From an uncultured Verrucomicrobiae bacterium (lineage in GTDB: Bacteria; Verrucomicrobiota; Verrucomicrobiia; Chthoniobacterales; JAFAMB01), in NCBI GenBank assembly GCA_963736745.1, contig CAVTQD010000029.1, positions 66,931 to 130,930 on the forward strand: a stretch of DNA of 64,000 bases, read 5' to 3'. Below the pieces are notes generated by a model. That model had not been told where the DNA came from and made no database searches. It saw only the letters and a program-made list of their open reading frames with translations. Shown one piece after another: positions 7,976 through 58,567 of this stretch. Every line of letters begins with the position of its first letter. Position 1 is the first letter of the stretch. The position numbers were made by a program, and so were the translations under genes.

Positions 7976-8872
7976 TCAGGAGCGTGGATGCGCTTCGTCA
8001 TAGGCCTTTTTCACGCGCTCCATCGTGACATGCGTGTAAATTTGTGTTGTCGACAAGTTGGCGTGTCCGAGTAGCGTCTGCACGCTTCGCAAATCCGCGC
8101 CGTTATCCAAAAGATGCGTTGCAAAGCTGTGGCGAAGTTTGTGTGGGCTGACACGCAGTTGGATGGATGTTTGAGATAAATGCTTCTTCAGCATCAACCA
8201 AATGGACCGCGCAGACGATCCGTTTCCTTAATTTGCTGAGAAACAACGGGCCGGACTGCACGTTTGCTTCAAACCGGTATTTCTGTATCGCCTTCAATGC
8301 AATCTGTCCTACTGGAACGATTCGTTCTTTCCGGCCTTTTCCAAGGACGCGGACGGTTTCGCTGAAGGTATCGACATCGGCGACATTCAGAGCGGCGAGT
8401 TCGCTCAGTCGGAGACCGCTGCTGTAGAAAAGTTCCATGATTGCAGAATCGCGTGCGGCAGCCCAGACAGGAGCTTGAGCTTGGCGCTGAACTCTATTCG
8501 GCGTCGTCAAAAGTTCGTCTACCTGCGTGACAGAAAGAACAATCGGAAGTTTCTTCTCCATCTTTGGCAATTGCACTTCCCTTAGCGGGTTTTCGCGAAA
8601 ACCCTCCCGTTCGACAAGGTATTTGTAGAAGCTGCGCAGTGCGGCAAACGTGAGCCGGACATACGACCTGGCCATGCCCTTTTTCATGCAGTCGAGCAGA
8701 AAGGCGCGGAACTGTTGCGCTGTGCAGATTCACCCACGAAATTTTGTCGCCTCCGAAATCCCTAAATTTTGCCAGGGCGTGTCGATAGGCTATGACAGTC
8801 CGTGGTGATGCATTTCGTTCGACGTCAAGATATTCAAAGTAGCGCTCAAGAAGCCGGTCCTTTTTATGGCAT
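7976..8872 (-). CDS. xerC: Tyrosine recombinase XerC, split over three frames
   Basis: [69 protein letters not shown]; start approximate. Confidence 0.88.
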
Positions 8873-8921
8873 CCGGCAATACAGAAAGGAGGCGAAGTCA
8901 TAGCCTGAATGTGCGGAAGGG

Positions 8922-9381
8922 TCACATTCGGCAAGTCGTCCTGAGTCAGAAAGCTGAGAAACAGCTGGCGATGTTCTCGTTCGTCCGAGAGAAGATCAAT
9001 CACCATATCCTGAGTTACGTAGTCGATTCCCTCTGTGAGGTTGATGATCTTCTGGTACTGCTGATGGATGCTTCATTGGCACTCATGACTCCTCGGATAA
9101 CTGCCATCGCATCAGCGTTGTCCAACGGTGGTTGCAACAAATTTTGATTTCGCGGCAATTCAAGCGAACCCGGGAAGACGGCCGCCCAGTACGTTGATGC
9201 GTTTCGCCAGGCGCCGCGCGTGTTTCAGTTTGAGAGTGACCTGTTCTTCGAGCGATTTCCTGATGCTTTCCGCGTCCGCCCCCTCCAGGTCGATCGAGTT
9301 GGCGAGATAATTCTGCATCGTCTCCAACTCTATGGCGTAGGATCTTTTCAGCTCGGTAATGATATCCTTCGTCTTATCCAC
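8922..9381 (-). CDS. Ferritin-like (Dps-like/bacterioferritin-like) four-helix protein, frameshifted
   Basis: SYAIELETMQNYLANSIDLEG, RINVLGG-PG, LQPP, DYVTQDMVIDLLSDEREH pieced across frames; end approximate. Confidence 0.75.
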
Positions 9382-9424: not shown

Positions 9425-11300
9425 CTAATGTCTCTCGCCCATGGGCGTGCCTAAGTACTCAGGCTGCGCCGTAGCGCCGACATCTCCATACCGGGCTGTA
9501 TCGCGTCGCAGGGAAAGAACGGCTGACCTCGTTTCAACCCCATCCGGCGAGATAGCGACAATGGGGATTTCAAAATCGTTGTCCGGAAATTTGAAATGGT
9601 ACCGGAACGTTCCATCTGGTTGGAGTTGAACGGGTCTCCCCGCAATCGTGACCTTTGCCTGCGGATCGGTGCCGCCGTAAAAAATCACCTCTGCGTTCAC
9701 GTGCATGAAAAATTCGCGCTCGGACTGGCCGAAAGGCTGCCCGCTCCAACTTGCTCCGATCCCGCTGAACAGGCTGCTTTCGGAAACCAACTCTCCCCAA
9801 CTTGAAAGGCTGAACTCCAAGCCGCTCCAGCTTGAAGGGCCGAATTCTGAACCGCTCCAGCTTGAAGGGCCGAACTCCAAACCGACTCCAGCTTGAGAGG
9901 TTCCAGCTCGATAATTGCTCGGAACCAAAGGAAAAAGAGCTGACGTTATAGGACCCGAACGCTGTCTCCCAACTGGAGAGCATTTCGCTGCTCAGACTGT
10001 ACGAGCTCAGCAGAGTTTCCCAGCTGGACGTAATCTCACGAAAGCCAGCTTGCCAACTGGCCAACATCTCGCTGCTCACACCGTAGGAACTCAACACCGA
10101 TTCCCATTTCGCGAAAATCTCGGTGACACCTGCCTGCCAACTGGCCAGGGTTTCGCTGCTCAGACCGTACGAAGTGATTGTCACTTGTGAAACTAGAGGC
10201 AATCTCGCTCCAGACCGGCGTGCCAGCTCGCCATTACTTCGCTCCCAAGCCCCAATGAGACTGAGGGATTGTTCCCAATTCGAAATAATCGCTCTAACTC
10301 CGGCTTGCCAACTTGCCAGTGTTTCGCTTCCGCCGGCCAGAACTTCAGAAGACAGCTCGCCGAGCTGCGAAGAGGCACCGCCGACTTGTGAGGAGAGCCC
10401 GCCGAGTTGTGAGGAGGCTCCCCCAACTTCCACGTTCCCGAAACTGCTGACTCCTCCGCTCGAAACCTCCTGCTGCAAAAATTCCCGGATCGACGAGCTG
10501 AACAAACTTGACTCCCCAGGAGCCAGCAAAGAAGCCAAACGGCCCTTTGCAAGAAGTTCACTAGCCGATTCCGAGTCCAAACGACCGCTCAACTCAGAGT
10601 GAAGAAATTGAAGCACATCCTGCGAACTCATGGAAAAGAGACGATCAAGAAAGTCTTTTCCGAGCAGTGTCTCCAAGACCTTGACTTGTTCGCCGCCCCA
10701 ACTTGAAGGGCCGCTCTCGCCACCGATGGCTGCCTGTTGAAGACGAGCCAACGTTTCTGTCAACGGCTGGCCTTCCGATCGAGCGGCCGATACGACGTCG
10801 AGTAAAAAATTGAAACTGAGGTGGAATGGAACCGTGGCAAACTGCGTGTCCCAATTCGGACTGATCGACTCTGGCGGCGTTTGAGTAGGTCCCGCCTTGC
10901 TTACGATTGCCCAGACGTCATTCGCATCCCGGTATCCGAAAACCACGCTGTACTCGGATCCGGCTGATTGGACCGGGATATACCAGTTGCGCGCGATTTC
11001 ATTGATCTCGACGACGGATTCGAGCTCATTGTTTCGATAGACCTGGATAAACAGTTTTCGTGGTGATGGAAATTTCGCGTAATCAAAATCCCAATATGTG
11101 AATAGCCAGTGTGGATCACGCGCGATCAAAAACATCTCTCCGTATCCGGTCGGCAACGATCCTAAATCTTCAAACTTCAGCTTGTCAGCCGGTTCAACGG
11201 AAGCCTTACCTTCGGATTCCTGTCCCTGAGTTTTCTCGGACGGGACCGGACCAGTTGTTGTTCGGAAGCCACTCTTTTTCTTGGAAGATTCTTTGCTCAT
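9425..11300 (-). CDS. DUF4912-family protein with expanded Ser/Trp-rich repeat region and C-terminal Ig-like domain, frameshifted near 9885
   Basis: LPTGYG-LIARDPHWLFTYWD, ARNWYIPV; C-terminal EVIFYGGTDPQAKVTIAGRPVQLQPDGTFRYHF. Confidence 0.8.
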
Positions 11301-11450
11301 TTTCAAACCCTCAGGCGCGCGCCGGGGGCCTCGCACCCGCCAATGGTGGGCGAATTTTGGTGAAATGCAAATTCTATTTCGGGCGGACCAATTGGACCTT
11401 TGCGCGGCCTTTGGGACGGTCGGGTGAACGGTCGAATTCCGTGTCTGTCG

Positions 11451-12221
11451 CTAGCGAGATATTCCGGACTCCCCGAGCGCTTCGCTGATTGAAGACTCCC
11501 TGGCAATCAGACCCGCAAGGTAACCGTTCTTCCGTGGAAGAGTCAGGGAGCCCTCAATGTTAGACGGCGCATCAAGGCGCGAAAAAATGGCGTAAAAAAT
11601 TCGCGAGCGCGGTACCGCCTTTTCCCCGTAGCCGCCGGGTTTGTTGCTTGACCAGAATCGAATCGTCTCGATTCCATTCACTGCCCGTTTGCCCAGATAA
11701 ATCACGGAATGGCCGTGCTCTCGCATCCCGACTGCATCGGTCCAAAAGATCTTCATGAAATCACCCGGCCTGGCTTCGTCGAAAGATGTGAAATTGTGGC
11801 CAATTCTCAGCTCACGAAATAGACAGGCAGTGCCGGGACCGTTCGCGTTCCAGCGACCCCAGACTCCAACTCCGTCCGGTTGCCCCTTGATTGCGAGCGC
11901 TTCGGCCACGTTCTCTCCGACCAGCGATTCAGGCAGCAGCTCTTGGAGCGCTTGGATGAAGACCAGGTAGGTCGCGCCGGAACAGTACGTTGCTCGAGCG
12001 GCCGCCGGTTTCACAGAAAGTCTGCCTCCAGTTACTTGTACCGCAGATTGGAGATCTCGTGTGGCCCCGGAAGTTGCCGAGTAGCCGCCGCCTTTGGGCA
12101 TTGTATTCAATAAGGAGACAATGAGATTGTTCGGGTCTCTTTTGGTAAGCGCATCAATTTGTGCAAAGAGCGGCGAACAGTTCAAGAGCAGCAGGCCAAG
12201 AGCGACCAAAGGGCGGATCAT
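11451..12221 (-). CDS. Exported protein with probable papain-like (NlpC/P60-type) Cys-His dyad
   Basis: Signal peptide MIRPLVALGLLLLNCSPLFA; TYCSGATY, PGDFMKI, HGHSVIYLG; ATGA overlap with upstream gene. Confidence 0.5.
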   Translation of the reverse strand: MIRPLVALGLLLLNCSPLFAQIDALTKRDPNNLIVSLLNTMPKGGGYSATSGATRDLQSAVQVTGGRLSVKPAAARATYCSGATYLVFIQALQELLPESLVGENVAEALAIKGQPDGVGVWGRWNANGPGTACLFRELRIGHNFTSFDEARPGDFMKIFWTDAVGMREHGHSVIYLGKRAVNGIETIRFWSSNKPGGYGEKAVPRSRIFYAIFSRLDAPSNIEGSLTLPRKNGYLAGLIARESSISEALGESGISR

Positions 12222-12865
12222 AGAAAAATATCGAGACACTTGCGTGCCCGTTCGATTGGGTCGGAGAGTTCCGTGAAAGCGGCGAAGTCACCTCGAAGGG
12301 CTTCAAGTGAATATTTTTCGGCTTCGATCTCTTTGCGCGAACGGTAGCCGCGCTTGCGTAAAATGTCAGTTAATCCGTTGCGGCCCTGATAAGAGTATTG
12401 CAGTTGAAGGGCGGCGATCGCGAGAGCGAGGGCCCAGGCAGCTCTTCCCCTTCGCCTCAGGAGCAGCAGGGTGAGACCGATGATCGTCAATGCTGCGCCT
12501 CCGCGGTAAACGAGCGCTTCTAGAGGTATTTCCAGTTCCAGTTCGTCGATTCGTTTACTGACCAGTTGGGTTGGCCGGCTGGAATAATAGTAAATACTTC
12601 GGGCGGTGTCGCGATTGACTTCCCTCCTGGGTTTCACGTGCATTCTGGTCGAGCTAGGAGGTGGCTTCGCTGAAGTGACGGTCAGTTCCCCTTCCACCGG
12701 TCCGTTCTCGTGATGTACGCGTAGACAGACCTCGCTCTGGGAACGGGCTGAACGAAGCGCGGCTTCGATCGCCTCAATTTTTGAAGGAAACGAAGATTCT
12801 CTCAAGGGGGAACGAAACCACCACCTAGAGTCAGCAAAAACGATTTCGAAAACGATCTCCGGCAT
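12218..12865 (-). CDS. Membrane protein, DUF2188-like N-terminus fused to DUF2892-like C-terminus
   Basis: SKIEAIEAALRSARSQ-LRVHHENG; RIDELELE, two hydrophobic helices, GYRSRKEIEAEKYSLEALRGDF. Confidence 0.55.
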   Translation of the reverse strand: MPEIVFEIVFADSRWWFRSPLRESSFPSKIEAIEAALRSARSQSEVCLRVHHENGPVEGELTVTSAKPPPSSTRMHVKPRREVNRDTARSIYYYSSRPTQLVSKRIDELELEIPLEALVYRGGAALTIIGLTLLLLRRRGRAAWALALAIAALQLQYSYQGRNGLTDILRKRGYRSRKEIEAEKYSLEALRGDFAAFTELSDPIERARKCLDIFL

Positions 12866-12898
12866 ACCTCTGCAATCTTGGATGAGGAAACGCCGCTG

Positions 12899-13157
12899 GC
12901 AACAAAAAGCGTTCGGCGTTCACGGCTTGGTGTTCGCAGTTCGACGTTGGACGGTGGCGCGTTTAGTTTCTTTAACACCGGGTAAACCGAGACGGTTTAC
13001 TTACTGTGCTCGTTGAACGCTTTTTCTTGCGGGTATCAGTGCACTAGCTAACTCGGTGTTCGCAGTTCGACGTTGGACGATGGCGCGTTTAGCTTCTTCA
13101 ACACCGGGTAAACCGAGACGGTTTACTTACTGCGCTCGTTGAACGCTTTTCTTGCGG
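12899..13157 (-). repeat. Two reverse-oriented copies of the lexA-flanking ~125-bp repeat plus a forward partial end
   Basis: Copies at ~12926-13047 and 13048-13157; hairpins GTAAACCGAGACGGTTTACTTAC at 12982-13004 and 13108-13130; forward fragment GCAACAAAAAGCGTTC at 12899-12914. Confidence 0.95.
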
Positions 13158-13184
13158 ACCGCTGCGAAAACAAGAGATTTAGGA

Positions 13185-13206
13185 GAGGGTACACTATTGT
13201 ACCCTC
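13185..13206. terminator. 9-bp perfect hairpin enclosing the lexA stop codon (possible terminator or stability element)
   Basis: GAGGGTACA-CTAT-TGTACCCTC; no clear U-tract. Confidence 0.4.
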
Positions 13207-13805
13207 CGCAGCAGGCCAATCATTACCCCCTGAATGACGAGTTCTTCAGCTGGAAGAAGATCCGGATATAGCGGGTTCTCCGCTTTAAGGAATGGTTCGC
13301 CATGGTCGAGCAGATAACGTTTCAGAGTCGACTCACCGTCTATCAGCGCCGCGACGATCTCCCCATTTTTGGGGACCCGCTTCTGAAGGAGAACCGTGTC
13401 GCCGTCGGCGATCTGAGCCCCAATCATCGAGTCCCCCCGTACCCTGAGGGCAAAGACTTCCGCCCCACTTTCAACCCCAAACGCTGCCAGATCGACCCCT
13501 AACTTGGAACCGCTCCATTCCAAGGCTTCACTCGGCATGCCCGCCGGAATTTGGCCCAAGATCGGGATCGACCGCAATCCGGGCAAAAACCGGAAACTAG
13601 GATCGACCGCCGAGCGAGCCTTTCCCGGCGTTCGTTTGATCACACCCTTTCGTTCCAGCGCCCGCAGATGATTCATCGCAGCGGTTTGACTTTGGAACCC
13701 GAAGTACATTTGGATTTCGCGACTTGAAGGTGGAAACCCGGTTTGTTGTTGTTGCTGTCGAATGAAATCGAGGACTTCCTGCTGGCGCGCGGTGAGTTCA
13801 GCCAT
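13194..13805 (-). CDS. lexA: SOS transcriptional repressor LexA
   Basis: LTARQQEVLDFI-PPSSREI winged HTH; IPAG cleavage site; VRGDSM Ser; TLKR Lys. Confidence 0.97.
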   Translation of the reverse strand: MAELTARQQEVLDFIRQQQQQTGFPPSSREIQMYFGFQSQTAAMNHLRALERKGVIKRTPGKARSAVDPSFRFLPGLRSIPILGQIPAGMPSEALEWSGSKLGVDLAAFGVESGAEVFALRVRGDSMIGAQIADGDTVLLQKRVPKNGEIVAALIDGESTLKRYLLDHGEPFLKAENPLYPDLLPAEELVIQGVMIGLLRRVQ

Positions 13806-13808
13806 AGA

Positions 13809-13822
13809 TGTTCAGCCGAACA
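13809..13822. promoter_or_regulatory. LexA operator (SOS box), Verrucomicrobia type TGTTC-N4-GAACA
   Basis: TGTTCAGCCGAACA separated by 3 bp from the lexA ATG; matches the described Verrucomicrobia LexA motif. Confidence 0.9.
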
Positions 13823-13848
13823 CTAGATCAGTGCAGTGACACCCGCAA
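13820..13848 (-). promoter_or_regulatory. Putative sigma70 promoter of lexA
   Basis: Minus strand TTGCGG (13848-13843), 17-bp spacer, TAGTGT (13825-13820); -10 overlaps the SOS box, -35 lies inside repeat unit 1. Confidence 0.6.
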
Positions 13849-14334
13849 GAAAAAGCGTTCAACGAGCGCAGTAAGTAAACCGTCTCGGTTTACCCGGGGT
13901 TGAAGAAGCAAAACGCGCCATCGTCTAACGTCGAACTGCGAACACCGAGCTAGTGCACTGATACCCGCGAGAAAAAGCGTTCAACGAGGGGCAGTAAGTA
14001 AACCGTCTCGGTTTACCTGGTATTGAAGAAGCAAAACGCGCCACCGTCCACCGTCCAACGTCGAACTGCGAACACCGAGTTAGTGCAGTGATACCCGCAA
14101 GAAAAAGCGTTCAACGAGCCGCAGTAAGTAAACCGTCTCGGTTTACCCGGCGTTGAAGAAGCAAAACGCGCCACCGTCCACCGTCCAACGTCGAACTGCG
14201 AACACCGAGTTAGTGCACTGATACCCGCAAGAAAACGCGTTCAACGAGCCGCAGTAAGTAAACCGTCTCGGTTTACCCGGGGTTGAAGGAGCAAAACGCG
14301 CCATCGTCTAACGTCGAACTGCGAACACTGAGTT
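13830..14334 (+). repeat. Tandem array of four 122-130 bp units upstream of lexA
   Basis: Units start at 13830, 13952, 14082, 14212 (122, 130, 130, 123 bp); each has GTAAGTAAACCGTCTCGGTTTAC (13871, 13994, 14124, 14254); junctions read YTAGTGCA. Confidence 0.97.
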
Positions 14335-14408
14335 AGTTGCATTGACGGAATGCAGAACGAAAGACCGGACTCGCGCGATCGACCAGAATAGCTGAAGCTA
14401 TCGGTCTA

Positions 14409-15554
14409 ATGAGAGTCGTGGTGGTAGGAGCCGGAATCGCCGGGGCGAGCGCGGCATTTCATCTAACGCAGTTTGGCGCTGAAGTATTTCTTGTCGACGG
14501 AAACGTGCCCGGGCGCGCCACTCTGGCGGGCGCCGGAATTATCTGTCCCTGGCTTTCGCACAACCAGGATCCACGCTACCAAATGCTCGCCTTCGCGGCG
14601 GTAAAATATTATCCAGAACTTTCAGCCAGACTCGGTGCTTTGGGTGAAAACGGGGTCGGTTTCGAAAAGGTTGGAGGCTTAGTTGTCGGCCACTCAGTCG
14701 AGCAGCTCGATCCGGTCGTCCGCCGATTGCAAAGGCATCTGGAACAGGGAAACAGAGAGGTGGGGGAGGTTCGCTTGCTTGAAGCTGGCGGTCCCACCGA
14801 ATTGTTTCCTTACCTCGATTCCGCATTGGCAGGCGTTTATCTGAGCGGCGCTGCTCGAGTATGCGGGGAGAGTTTCCGAATTGGTCTGCTGAATGCCGCG
14901 CGAAAAGCCGGTACTCGGGAACTTTCTGGCACCGCGGTTTTACAGCGCTCAGGCGACGCCGTTGTTGGTGTGCGAGTCGCGAAAGAATTTATCGGCGCGG
15001 ACGCAGTGATCGTAGCGGCGGGCGCCTGGTCGGCCGAACTATGCAGACCGATTAACCTCCACGTTGCGGTTGAGCCGCAACGCGGCCAGATCCTGCATCT
15101 GAAAGTCTCTGAGACGAACACGGAGGCTTTGCCTGTCATTGTGCCCGTCCTGAGCGATTACTACATGCTCGCGTTCTGCGGTTCTCGAATAGTGGTGGGA
15201 GCAACGCGCGAAACCGGTTGCGGGTTTGACTTCCGCGCTACAGCGGGCGGTGTCGCAGAGGTTCTCCAGGAGGGGTTGCGGATCGCGCCTGGTTTGAAGA
15301 ACGCAACGCTGGAGGAGATCCGGGTGGGGTTCCGCCCAATGAGCAGGGACGGCTTGCCGTTGCTCGGCCCGCCCGCAGCGATCACTGGTTTGGTCCTGGC
15401 AACGGGACTCGGGCGGTACGGACTGACTCTGGGGCCATATGTCGGTCTGCTAGCAGCACAACTGGCCGTTGGAGAAACGCCTGCATCGGATTCCTCATGT
15501 TTTACACCCGACCGGCAGGCAGTCGAAGAGCGATCTGCATGCGTGCGCGCCTGA
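14409..15554 (+). CDS. FAD-dependent D-amino acid oxidase/glycine oxidase family oxidoreductase
   Basis: VVGAGIAG Rossmann motif, ATLAGAGII, AAGAWS, PQRGQI, VGFRP, GLTLGP. Confidence 0.88.
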   Translation: MRVVVVGAGIAGASAAFHLTQFGAEVFLVDGNVPGRATLAGAGIICPWLSHNQDPRYQMLAFAAVKYYPELSARLGALGENGVGFEKVGGLVVGHSVEQLDPVVRRLQRHLEQGNREVGEVRLLEAGGPTELFPYLDSALAGVYLSGAARVCGESFRIGLLNAARKAGTRELSGTAVLQRSGDAVVGVRVAKEFIGADAVIVAAGAWSAELCRPINLHVAVEPQRGQILHLKVSETNTEALPVIVPVLSDYYMLAFCGSRIVVGATRETGCGFDFRATAGGVAEVLQEGLRIAPGLKNATLEEIRVGFRPMSRDGLPLLGPPAAITGLVLATGLGRYGLTLGPYVGLLAAQLAVGETPASDSSCFTPDRQAVEERSACVRA

Positions 15555-56171: not shown

Positions 56172-58567
56172 TCACTCGCCGATAGCGTTACCCACATTCA
56201 GGTTGAGCGGCAATCCGAACCGGGGCAAATCCTTCAGCGTAAACGTGAGAACGAGCGCGATCTGGCGTTTCCCTGTGCCGTTGTTCGTGATATTCAGGCC
56301 AAGCGCCCCGACCCAGCTGCTCAGGTCCCGATGGAGTGCGTAAGTTTGTTGATTCAGCAAGCCGGTCTTGAATTCGTAATCCTCGTAAATGCTGAAGGCC
56401 CAGTTGTCGTTCAACCGCAGGTAGGTGTAAAAGGAGAGCTCGCTGCTATCCTGGTAGTATGGATTGCTTTGCAGATATTGATGTCCGATTCGGAACTCGA
56501 TATTCGGGTTTACCATCCAGTCGCAAGCGGTATTGATTTCCCAAAACCCTTTGTCCAGGAGAGGAACCTGCGAATCGACGGAAAGATAGAGCCAGGGTAC
56601 CGGTTGGAACCGGACCCGGTTGAACACGTTGGAGAAGAGCTCGCTTTGAGGGGACGAGCGGATTGGAACGGGAAACACTCGTAGTTGACGGAGGAATGAC
56701 CTGGGCGAGCGGATTATCGAAGTCGACATCAAAATAGGTGTCGACATCGAGCCAGTTGAGTGTTGACGAATCCCGGCGGGTCTGGAGCCGGTTGCGCATG
56801 CCCAGACGCAGAATCGTCCAGCGATCGAGCGAATCGATAGAAAGATACTGAGGAAAATTAATCGATTGCAGTCGCGTACTCGGAATGTATTGATCAAACG
56901 GAAGAATATCTGAGGGAGAGACCGTCGGTTGAGAAACCCATGAGAAGTCTGCGTACGGCTGGATAACGTGTCGCAGTCCGTCCAGCCCAAGCGATCTCTC
57001 TTGTACTCCTTCGAAAGCTTTCGAAAGCTTGAAGGATGCTTCCACATCAGCGTTCAAGGCAAACCTTACGCGCCCGCCGTGTTCGGTAAGAAGCCCCTCC
57101 GGGAGGGGGTTACTGGGATCAGATTCCGTGAAGCTTCCGGTCGTACTGTAGTAGGTCCCGCGGAAACCGACGCTCGGAACCACCGAGAGCCAGCCGAAAT
57201 AGGTTTTGGGGTAAAGAAATTGGTGGAAGGAATCGATGCGAAAACTGTTGTAGTCCGGATTCAGCGCTCCAGCCTGCAGATCGATCGATTGGTTGCCAGT
57301 TTTTGCAGCGAAGGCACGGTGCAGCCATGATGCGCTGGTCGTTGCCTCGTAGAAAATCGGTCCATTAAACAGGGGTGTTCGCGCGACCTCCCAGCTAAGT
57401 TCGGGCAAGTCGTTCGACCGTTTCCTGAAAGTTGTTCACTTGAACACGAGTCGTGCACATTCAGCGTGTAGGCCTCGCCGCGCTTTAAGAGTTCGAAATA
57501 AGTATCCGGCTGTGGATCGTATGCGAAAACGGCGGGGTAAAAATCCTGCAGGAAATATTGGTCGCTCAATTTGTTGAAATCAACGACCGCCGATAGATCC
57601 TCTGTGATGTAGGTCCGCGACTGGTACAGAATCCGATACCGTCCGGCACTGATTGGTGCGCGGCCAAGCGCGGTTTCATTGATGTTGGGCGATTGGTCGA
57701 ACATTCCGTAGAGACGCAGGTGTCCGTAGCTCTCGTTGTTGTCGCCTAAGTGGTAGTGCGCATCCCCGCCGAGTGCCGGGCCCCTGGAAGTTCGCAAATC
57801 AAGGTGAACAGTCCCGCTCACGTTCGTCGCAATCGGAAACGTTATTGAGGTGAGCAAATACGCACCCCAAGTCGAGTTGTAACCGGGATCCAGGTTATAA
57901 CTGAACTGGTCATTCAACGATTGGTAAATGTAAGGAAACCAGAAAATGGGTGTACGACCCAGAAACAGAGTCACATTCGAGAGGATGATCCGATCATTGG
58001 CATAGATGCGGATTGTCCGAGCACGGAGTTGGTAATCTGGTTTCGACGTGTCACTGGTCGTTATTAAGCCATTGAGGATCGTGTATTCATTTTCTTTGAA
58101 GAGAAACGACGGTGTCGCCGATGACTTGAAATGGCTGTTTCGGACCGCCGAAATCAGTCATCTTGAGTTGCTTTGGTTTGCAGGTTGTAGATGGCGCGAT
58201 CGGCTGTGAATGCGTATCTGTCCCGGAATAATTGGACATTGCCTCGCAATATGATTTCGTGCGTCGAGGGGTTGTATTCGGCATAGTCGCAGTAAATGGT
58301 GACATCGGCGTACCGCACAACGACATCCCTTTCCGCGACAGCAATTCCGCCCTCAAATCGGGTTTGCTGCGAGTTGATCTCAACGGGAATCGACCCGGTC
58401 TTCTGATCCGCTCTGAAACGGCAGCAACGGATTAAACTCCGATTCTTTGGCCGGCTTTAGCCGGTGTCGGATATGGAGTCGGCAGATGCGGGTGGAGGCG
58501 TTGCCTGGGCAAACAGATCCGTCGGCAGCAAAAGCACAAAAAACAGACCTAGAATCTGGAGCCTCAT
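56172..58567 (-). CDS. lptD: LPS assembly protein LptD, multiple frameshifts
   Basis: Signal peptide MRLQILGLFFVLLL; TPIFWFPY, PGYNSTWG; beta-barrel C-terminus with HRDLSSW. Confidence 0.8.

Follow-up and report, generated by a model that had tools for sequence, protein, structure and literature searches.

A reversed lexA gene between opposed arrays of a hairpin-containing repeat in an uncultured Chthoniobacterales bacterium

The stretch of DNA analyzed here, referred to as the window, comprises 64,000 nucleotides of contig CAVTQD010000029.1 (positions 66,931 to 130,930) from GCA_963736745.1, a metagenome-assembled genome (MAG) of an uncultured bacterium of the Chthoniobacterales (Verrucomicrobiota). 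It carries lexA, the gene for the SOS repressor, between two oppositely oriented arrays of a repeat unit of about 125 bp. Comparison with related genomes points to a probable history in which the native DNA between p215 and lexA was amplified in tandem around a hairpin resembling repetitive extragenic palindromes (REP) and bacterial interspersed mosaic elements (BIME), followed by a single inversion of the lexA cassette.

The lexA locus and its repeat units

The open reading frame (ORF) at 13194-13805 on the minus strand, coding for 203 aa, was identified as lexA by its match to TIGR00498 (E 3.9e-46, above the cut-off) and by the domains LexA_DNA_bind and Peptidase_S24. Four tandem units lie upstream of the gene (rightward in the window) and two reverse-complement units downstream, as the first-pass annotation of this DNA had described from the letters alone. 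Tandem Repeats Finder reported a single array at 13830-14345 with a period of 130, 4.1 copies, 90% matches and a score of 779, and a repeat search gave four direct copies spaced 123, 130 and 130 bp. Inverted arms were found between 12925-13045 and 13830-13950 (121 nt, 92%) and between 13048-13150 and 13851-13953 (103 nt, 96%). An alignment of all six units had a mean column identity of 86% and confined the additional 7 bp CCACCGT to units 2 and 3, again in agreement with the earlier description. The features of the locus are as follows.

12218-12865, minus strand: p215, hypothetical membrane-type protein without a Pfam or NCBIfam match
12899-12925, plus strand: native arm of the ancestral spacer on the p215 side, with GCAAC-AAAAAGCGTTC and GTTC heptamers; congener homology ends at 12918-12921
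12926-13032, minus strand: unit D2 (distal downstream), reverse complement of the U units, directly continuing the native arm
13033-13157, minus strand: unit D1 (proximal downstream), in U orientation starting exactly at CCGCAAG; new junction at 13157/13158
13182-13207, minus strand: perfect palindrome with a 10-bp stem, spanning the lexA stop codon
13194-13805, minus strand: lexA, intact, 203 aa
13809-13822, no strand assigned: LexA operator palindrome TGTTC-N4-GAACA, 26 nt before the ATG, moved along with lexA
13843-13964, plus strand: unit U1, 122 nt in CCGCAAG register, its first 18-22 nt alignable to the lexA promoter region of congeners
13965-14094, plus strand: unit U2, 130 nt, with the 7-bp CCACCGT duplication
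14095-14224, plus strand: unit U3, 130 nt, with the 7-bp duplication, 95% identical to U2
14225-14346, plus strand: unit U4, firm to 14336; second new junction
14409-15554, plus strand: FAD-dependent oxidoreductase (FADox), DAO family

The repetition of the unit at lexA is far beyond chance. In the whole 5.84-Mb assembly, six matches extend over 104 nt or more of the unit (E no higher than 1e-31), and all six are located at the lexA locus; a further 15 matches cover only the unit positions from about 44 to 106. All six units start with CCGCAAG. The U array runs to GAGTTAG (ending at 14336), followed by ten bases and then by the FADox spacer. These ten bases (14337-14346) may represent a decayed unit tail, in which case the array would end where D1 begins in the unit register.

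The inverted arms have a length of at least 240 bp, with an identity of 82-94% from unit to unit, and have 15 exact stretches of at least 25 nt in common, the longest being 47 nt. The innermost pair, U1 and D1, is the most similar inverted pair (93.5%), and D1 and D2 have changes in common that are found in none of the U units. Some of the single-base differences between units are changes in homopolymer length, which could be assembly errors, since the coding sequence of a XerC/D-like gene, also in the window, is broken up into three frames (see below).

A perfect TGTTC-N4-GAACA site, which we take to be the LexA motif of Verrucomicrobia, precedes the lexA start codon by 26-33 nt in all 18 loci examined and is likewise present at the related loci L123 and L066 discussed below. 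Genome-wide, 12 perfect sites were counted here, compared to 3-6 in five shuffles. A second perfect palindrome within the window (57433-57446) is located inside the long ORF 57261-57974 on the minus strand and is probably due to chance. The sequence TTGCGG-N17-TAGTGT was picked out, by eye only, as a putative promoter.

The palindrome at 13182-13207 was seen in none of the lexA 3′ ends printed for the relatives, and it changes the last LexA residue to Q instead of P. It could be a terminator or a fold-back scar of the rearrangement. The exact 26-mer of this palindrome had no matching stretch in metagenome contigs, and a scan with the LexA protein returned 65 loci, none of them closer than 92% over the full length.

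Orientation of lexA in this genome and its relatives

In relatives with a recognizable flank, the gene order is p262(-), p215(-), lexA(+), FADox and/or p512(+) at all 23 loci. In these genomes p215 diverges from lexA, and FADox lies downstream of lexA on the same strand. Here, lexA and its operator are on the opposite strand relative to both flanks, so that p215 is now downstream of lexA on the same strand and FADox is divergent from it. When all loci with a near-full LexA and at least one flank were considered, 57 of 60 had the ancestral order and three the inverted one, namely this genome and the loci L123 and L124; the 60 loci were obtained by three routes, and several represent the same contig fetched twice. 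After removal of identical LexA sequences, 38 of the remaining 40 loci were ancestral and two inverted.

Window positions 1-39100 are collinear with the congeners G011, G014 and G006 at 75-87% DNA identity. In all three comparisons the sole piece on the opposite strand is 13201-13860/13864. The flanking homology stops at 12918-12921 and resumes at 14359-14362. From the strand comparison together with these limits it follows that the inverted block comprises lexA and its operator along with the initial bases of the promoter-proximal unit. What is private to this genome at the locus are the two arrays, and no such arrays were found at lexA in the relatives' loci compared. Judged by these alignments, lexA is inverted here within 39 kb that stayed collinear. 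The suggestion in the first-pass annotation that the symmetric arrangement goes along with an inversion of the lexA segment is thus supported.

Over 1.4 kb, the loci L123 and L124 have the same sequence, with a LexA that shares 70% identity with that of this genome. Their order is p512(-), lexA(+), p215(+), p262(+), with lexA flipped against both flanks. In the LexA tree, L123 pairs with the un-inverted locus L066 (support 98/79) and this genome with the un-inverted locus L025 (83/84), and the inverted state needs two changes. Based on this tree, the lexA inversion occurred twice independently in one family. L066 has an inverted pair of CGTTTCN heptamer tracts between lexA and p512 (L066:1560-2900); in L123 (2700-3720) the first tract moved with lexA and the second stayed at p512. 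The L123 inversion also ends inside a repeat element.

The neighborhood of lexA is changed by the inversion: the gene now points toward p215 and p262 rather than toward FADox and MdoG. Since the operator and promoter of lexA remained with the gene, no change is expected in its autoregulation. The GC skew on the plus strand is positive in 13 of 15 8-kb windows over the whole stretch; if plus is the leading strand, the flip might perhaps have turned lexA from co-directional to head-on with replication. Further along the minus strand (9570-11336), a DUF4912 protein of 588 aa with internal repeats SSE(M/T)LASWQAG is encoded, which is syntenic with p262 and p215 in relatives.

A genome-wide GTAA hairpin family and the native spacer

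Each unit at lexA contains one hairpin, tagged with GTAA, with a stem of 8 bp and a loop of 3 nt. A fuzzy search of the whole genome within three substitutions of the lexA-type core (23 nt; GTAAG, stem, 3-nt loop, stem) revealed 86 copies at 36 places. Multiple copies are present at 22 of these places, and at 13 places 3-7 copies on one strand form an array with a period of 63-230 bp. The most frequent stem variant is GCAAACCG/CGGTTTGC with 46 copies and a TCT loop, followed by GTAAACCG/CGGTTTAC with seven and GTAAAGCG/CGCTTTAC with four copies. The variants are compensatory, with C:G, T:A and G:C at paired positions; hence it is the hairpin that is conserved. In the 11 arrays printed, the units are near-identical within an array, and between arrays only the hairpins are in common. 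The hairpins of other arrays are often arranged head to head (CTTAC CG GTAAG).

Based on a crude ORF map in place of gene calls, the hairpins avoid long ORFs and are preferentially extragenic: of 102 hairpins, 25 are inside an ORF of 150 aa or more, compared to an ORF coverage of 80% of the same contigs. A hairpin pattern in IUPAC code gave 83 matches in this genome, 0-45 in 18 congeners and none in reversed controls. Two REP arrays (G000 C22:3774-4222 and C24:4129-4602) have near-identical lead sequences and units with periods of about 206-230 bp; they may stem from a large segmental duplication or from a repeat at the contig ends that the assembly did not resolve.

In this genome, the full unit is found at lexA only and its hairpin core at 36 places. 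The idea of a lexA-specific architecture is not supported, since the same hairpin builds multi-unit clusters at 22 places in the genome and relatives lack an array at lexA, which the first-pass annotation had named as an outcome that would speak against its reading.

Two matches to Y1_Tnp were found in the genome. One is a gene similar to REP-associated tyrosine transposases (RAYT) at L023:1180-1755, with 23.2 bits for PF01797 (Y1_Tnp; cut-off 23) and E 1.4e-13 for the REP-associated tyrosine transposase model NF047646. GTAA-family hairpins are located on both sides of this gene. The second RAYT-like paralogue (L022:1210-1809, 199 aa) has no GTAA hairpins nearby. Behind it, in the region L022:1210-3072 (G000 contig C13), lies a long tandem repeat of another type, which can be read as a repetitive ORF with recurring GKQCSIGFQPVSTVHCRW. 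The hairpins form a REP/BIME-like, GTAA-tagged family with a likely RAYT.

The family was compared with described systems. In E. coli, the hairpins of REP clusters and BIME-2 are likewise short, tagged, intergenic and numerous, tandem copies are alike within a locus and differ between loci, and in the REPtron a Y1 transposase gene (RAYT, TnpA-REP) is bordered by the same hairpins (PMC3333891). Ton-Hoang et al. describe BIME tandem copies at one locus as well conserved and variable in number, with locus- and strain-specific copy numbers, and propose local amplification (PMC3333891). In contrast to E. coli, the tag here is GTAA and not GTAG, the host is a verrucomicrobium, the enzyme is a putative one, and the stem is perfect, whereas the E. 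coli enzyme needs a mismatch. The periods of up to 230 bp with much flanking DNA and the one hairpin per lexA unit, in place of a REP/iREP pair, also differ from BIME-2.

The catalogue of the GTAG REP superfamily, which covers several phyla including Verrucomicrobia (O. terrae), gives stems of 5-13 bp and loops of 2-20 nt (Table 1 in PMC3733652). The 8-bp stem and the 3-nt loop fall within these ranges, and frequent clusters and head-to-head dimers occur in both, whereas the fourth base of the tag differs here in nearly all copies; this Chthoniobacterales family was not found in the parts of the catalogue at hand (PMC3733652). The REPIN/RAYT system of Pseudomonas (PMC3116915, PMC3337134) similarly combines a non-autonomous hairpin repeat with a single- or low-copy RAYT and an abundance that varies strongly between related genomes. 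REPINs are, however, two inverted REPs moving as a unit, whereas long same-strand tandem arrays dominate here (PMC3116915, PMC3337134).

The remainder of the unit can be traced to the native spacer. The p215-lexA intergenic region of congeners is bounded by the inverted arms GCAAC-AAAAGCGTTC and GAACGCTTTT-TTGC and ends in the TGTTC-N4-GAACA palindrome before lexA. In this genome, the arm GCAAS-AAAAAGCGTTC occurs at the lexA locus only, where it matches the intergenic arms of the congeners and forms the edge of every unit. The unit therefore consists of intergenic DNA that was amplified along with one REP hairpin.

The spacers of relatives contain repeats of their own. Tandem tracts of the 7-bp motif (YGAACGY)n are located upstream of lexA in L025-L031 and L035, with up to about 30 copies in L026, and often form inverted pairs 100-200 bp apart. 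That such heptamer tracts are specific to lexA was rejected, as (GAACGNN)n is a genus-wide repeat: (GAACGNN)4 with at most one mismatch was found in 18 of the 19 genomes of the genus, ranging from nine matches in this genome to 679 in G011, with none in reversed controls. In the closest relative (L025, genome G015), the 464-bp spacer downstream of lexA contains two direct copies of a segment of about 190 bp before the FAD oxidoreductase gene, which may be a further sign that spacers flanking lexA amplify readily.

History of the locus and alternative explanations

In the history regarded as probable, the native p215-lexA intergenic stretch would have been amplified in tandem around one hairpin of the genome-wide REP/BIME-like family. 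A single inversion would then have flipped the lexA cassette, comprising the coding sequence, the operator and the promoter-proximal units, with one break at a unit boundary inside an array of at least two units and the other just 3′ of lexA. Two units would have been left beside p215 in their original orientation, and the rest carried inverted to the FADox side, starting from an ancestral order p215, D2, D1 / U4, U3, U2, U1, operator, lexA / FADox. The symmetric arrangement would thus be the product of the inversion and not a device predating it. Both new junctions are at one point of the unit, and therefore one break probably split an existing array; the order of events with this single break is what we infer, and the two junctions are likely to be exactly reciprocal. 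The similarity of U2 and U3 with their common 7-bp insertion, as well as the D1/D2 substitutions, suggests later local changes.

Several observations weigh against this history or parts of it. With regard to the repeat family, the lexA units carry a single hairpin each instead of the inverted REP pair of a BIME, and nearly all copies have the tag GTAA, one base off the canonical GTAG. GTAG is present in one form (one copy) among the 15 sequence variants listed, with a few more one-mismatch GTAG forms among the matches to the IUPAC pattern. The RAYT-like gene reaches 51 bits with NF047646, below the cut-off of 80 bits, and its protein had no match by sequence in the PDB. With regard to the junctions, the final 10 nt of U4 match the unit tail in decayed form only (one insertion, one substitution and a 2-nt deletion), and a weakly similar GTTGC..GGAATGC is present in the native spacer of one relative, which makes exact reciprocity likely rather than certain. 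The 3′ lexA breakpoint can be located only approximately, since the spacers of the relatives have diverged too far. The changes common to D1 and D2 would imply that part of the copy number arose, or was homogenized, after the split. Finally, orientation and copy numbers rest on one MAG assembly (76% complete, 64 contigs). Among public sequencing runs, the best contains 13% of the sampled words, and the reads placed on the locus gave only scattered pieces of mostly about 150 nt at a depth of about 2, none of which bridged an array.

An assembly artefact, with either a middle segment placed in the wrong orientation or units collapsed or expanded during assembly, is considered decidedly unlikely. 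Small errors do exist in this MAG, as the syntenic XerC/D-like gene is frameshifted in the same window, and the copy number could be off given the 95% identity of U2 and U3. Mis-orientation by the assembler is nevertheless unlikely, since the longest exact match between the arms (47 nt) is shorter than ordinary reads. Moreover, both new junctions are unique sequences, and the collinearity of the contig with three congeners extends to either side. Irrespective of how lexA is oriented at present, oppositely oriented units to its left and right need a past inversion-type event. The sole joint of opposite strands seen in the reads is a 95-nt contig of another REP arrangement.

Alternatively, a block of units may have been copied in reverse across lexA, e.g., through template switching in replication, with the lexA flip taking place in the same event or separately. 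The new palindrome at the lexA 3′ junction is the type of scar that fold-back synthesis can leave, and the changes shared by D1 and D2 would also fit. It would, however, have to be by chance that both ends of the copied block coincide with one point in the unit register, which a single break gives automatically, and the duplication alone does not explain why lexA is inverted relative to both flanks. This course of events is therefore held to be improbable.

Inversions by homologous recombination between inverted repeats, such as rRNA operons or insertion sequence copies, and site-specific invertons are known to flip a segment relative to the orientation in related genomes. The lexA segment is likewise bounded by inverted repeats and opposite to its relatives. 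It differs from invertons in having no adjacent dedicated invertase, in arms that are arrays of diverged 125-bp units and not short recombinase sites, in repeats that appear to be the result of a first inversion, and in its cargo, which is a whole regulator gene with its promoter and not a promoter alone. A literature search for lexA together with inverton yielded no paper; published lexA inversions were not searched for more widely.

The Pfam annotation of 27 ORFs in window positions 1-30940 agrees with the statement of the first-pass annotation that no transposase is nearby, and no dedicated invertase next to short inverted repeats was found among them. The sole recombinase-type match is an ORF with a Phage_integrase domain at 8106-8687, which belongs to the following gene.

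7976-9006, minus strand: XerC/D-like tyrosine recombinase gene, three overlapping frames, including ORF 8106-8687

In congeners this gene codes for about 300-309 aa, is intact and is syntenic; the split form here represents either a pseudogene or assembly errors (indels). Matches to the gene were obtained in every one of the 19 genomes of the genus; in at least 13 congeners, the best match and an un-inverted lexA are located on one contig at a distance of 4-5 kb. As it is syntenic in congeners with un-inverted lexA, the XerC/D-like integrase was rejected as a lexA invertase.

That the cassette is an active switch, RecA-dependently invertible with both orientations in the population and with changing neighbors receiving lexA read-through, is regarded as unlikely. 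The length and similarity of the inverted arms and their 15 exact matches would allow it, the high identity of U1 and D1 is what gene conversion would give, and two independent inversions of lexA took place in this family. The presence of two orientations was, however, not in evidence, as the read pieces bridged no array. L123/L124 is inverted without long inverted repeats and looks fixed, the divergence of the arms lowers homologous recombination, and no function ties p215, p262, FADox or MdoG to SOS. The present arms could still recombine through RecA, and the segment might still flip, because the exact stretches between the arms are in principle long enough for homologous recombination. The copy number of the upstream array, as proposed in the first-pass annotation, may likewise still change. 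A broader proposal, that lexA is a recurrently invertible module in which repeat-rich spacers (REP arrays here, paired heptamer tracts in relatives) let RecA flip the gene, appears quite unlikely. If it were true, RecA, which inactivates LexA, would flip the gene of the SOS repressor; the direction of lexA relative to replication and the operon receiving its read-through would change, with SOS-linked heterogeneity in the population.

The least credible explanation, judged to be very improbable, is that the units tune lexA as LexA decoy sites, additional promoters or structured RNA. The units do have GTTC/GAAC heptamer-like tracts resembling one half-site of the operator, as well as a copy of the TTGCGG element that precedes it. 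The relatives, however, have lexA without arrays. A scan for the operator over 12899-14346 with at most three mismatches returned only two weak sites, both lying outside the bodies of the units, in addition to the true operator (13809); as no TGTTC-N4-GAACA with at most three mismatches is located inside any unit, the decoy idea was rejected. Scans for promoters and terminators gave one site each, not above shuffles. The search against Rfam over 12000-15000 with E up to 1 identified no known family, only a chance match to a small nucleolar RNA (E 0.47). The folds of five units were no more stable than those of shuffles (z from -0.06 to -0.93), and only the 8-bp hairpin folds. The long RNA duplex or single-stranded DNA fold-back across lexA proposed in the first-pass annotation is accordingly not supported.

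Under the probable history of amplification and single inversion, the feature is mostly ordinary repeat biology, a REP/BIME-like array amplified with flanking DNA, to which a clean, lineage-specific inversion of the lexA cassette is added. A puzzling symmetric architecture would thereby become a readable history, leading from a hairpin repeat via local amplification with flanking DNA to a gene-sized inversion that left inverted arrays behind. The analysis also documents, in an uncultured soil member of the Chthoniobacterales, a REP/BIME-like family whose GTAA tag is unusual, together with a likely RAYT. In one family, the gene of a core regulator has been flipped as a cassette twice, and here the 39 kb around lexA stayed collinear. 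If the inverted arms still recombine, they would constitute a natural RecA substrate wrapped around the gene for RecA's own target.

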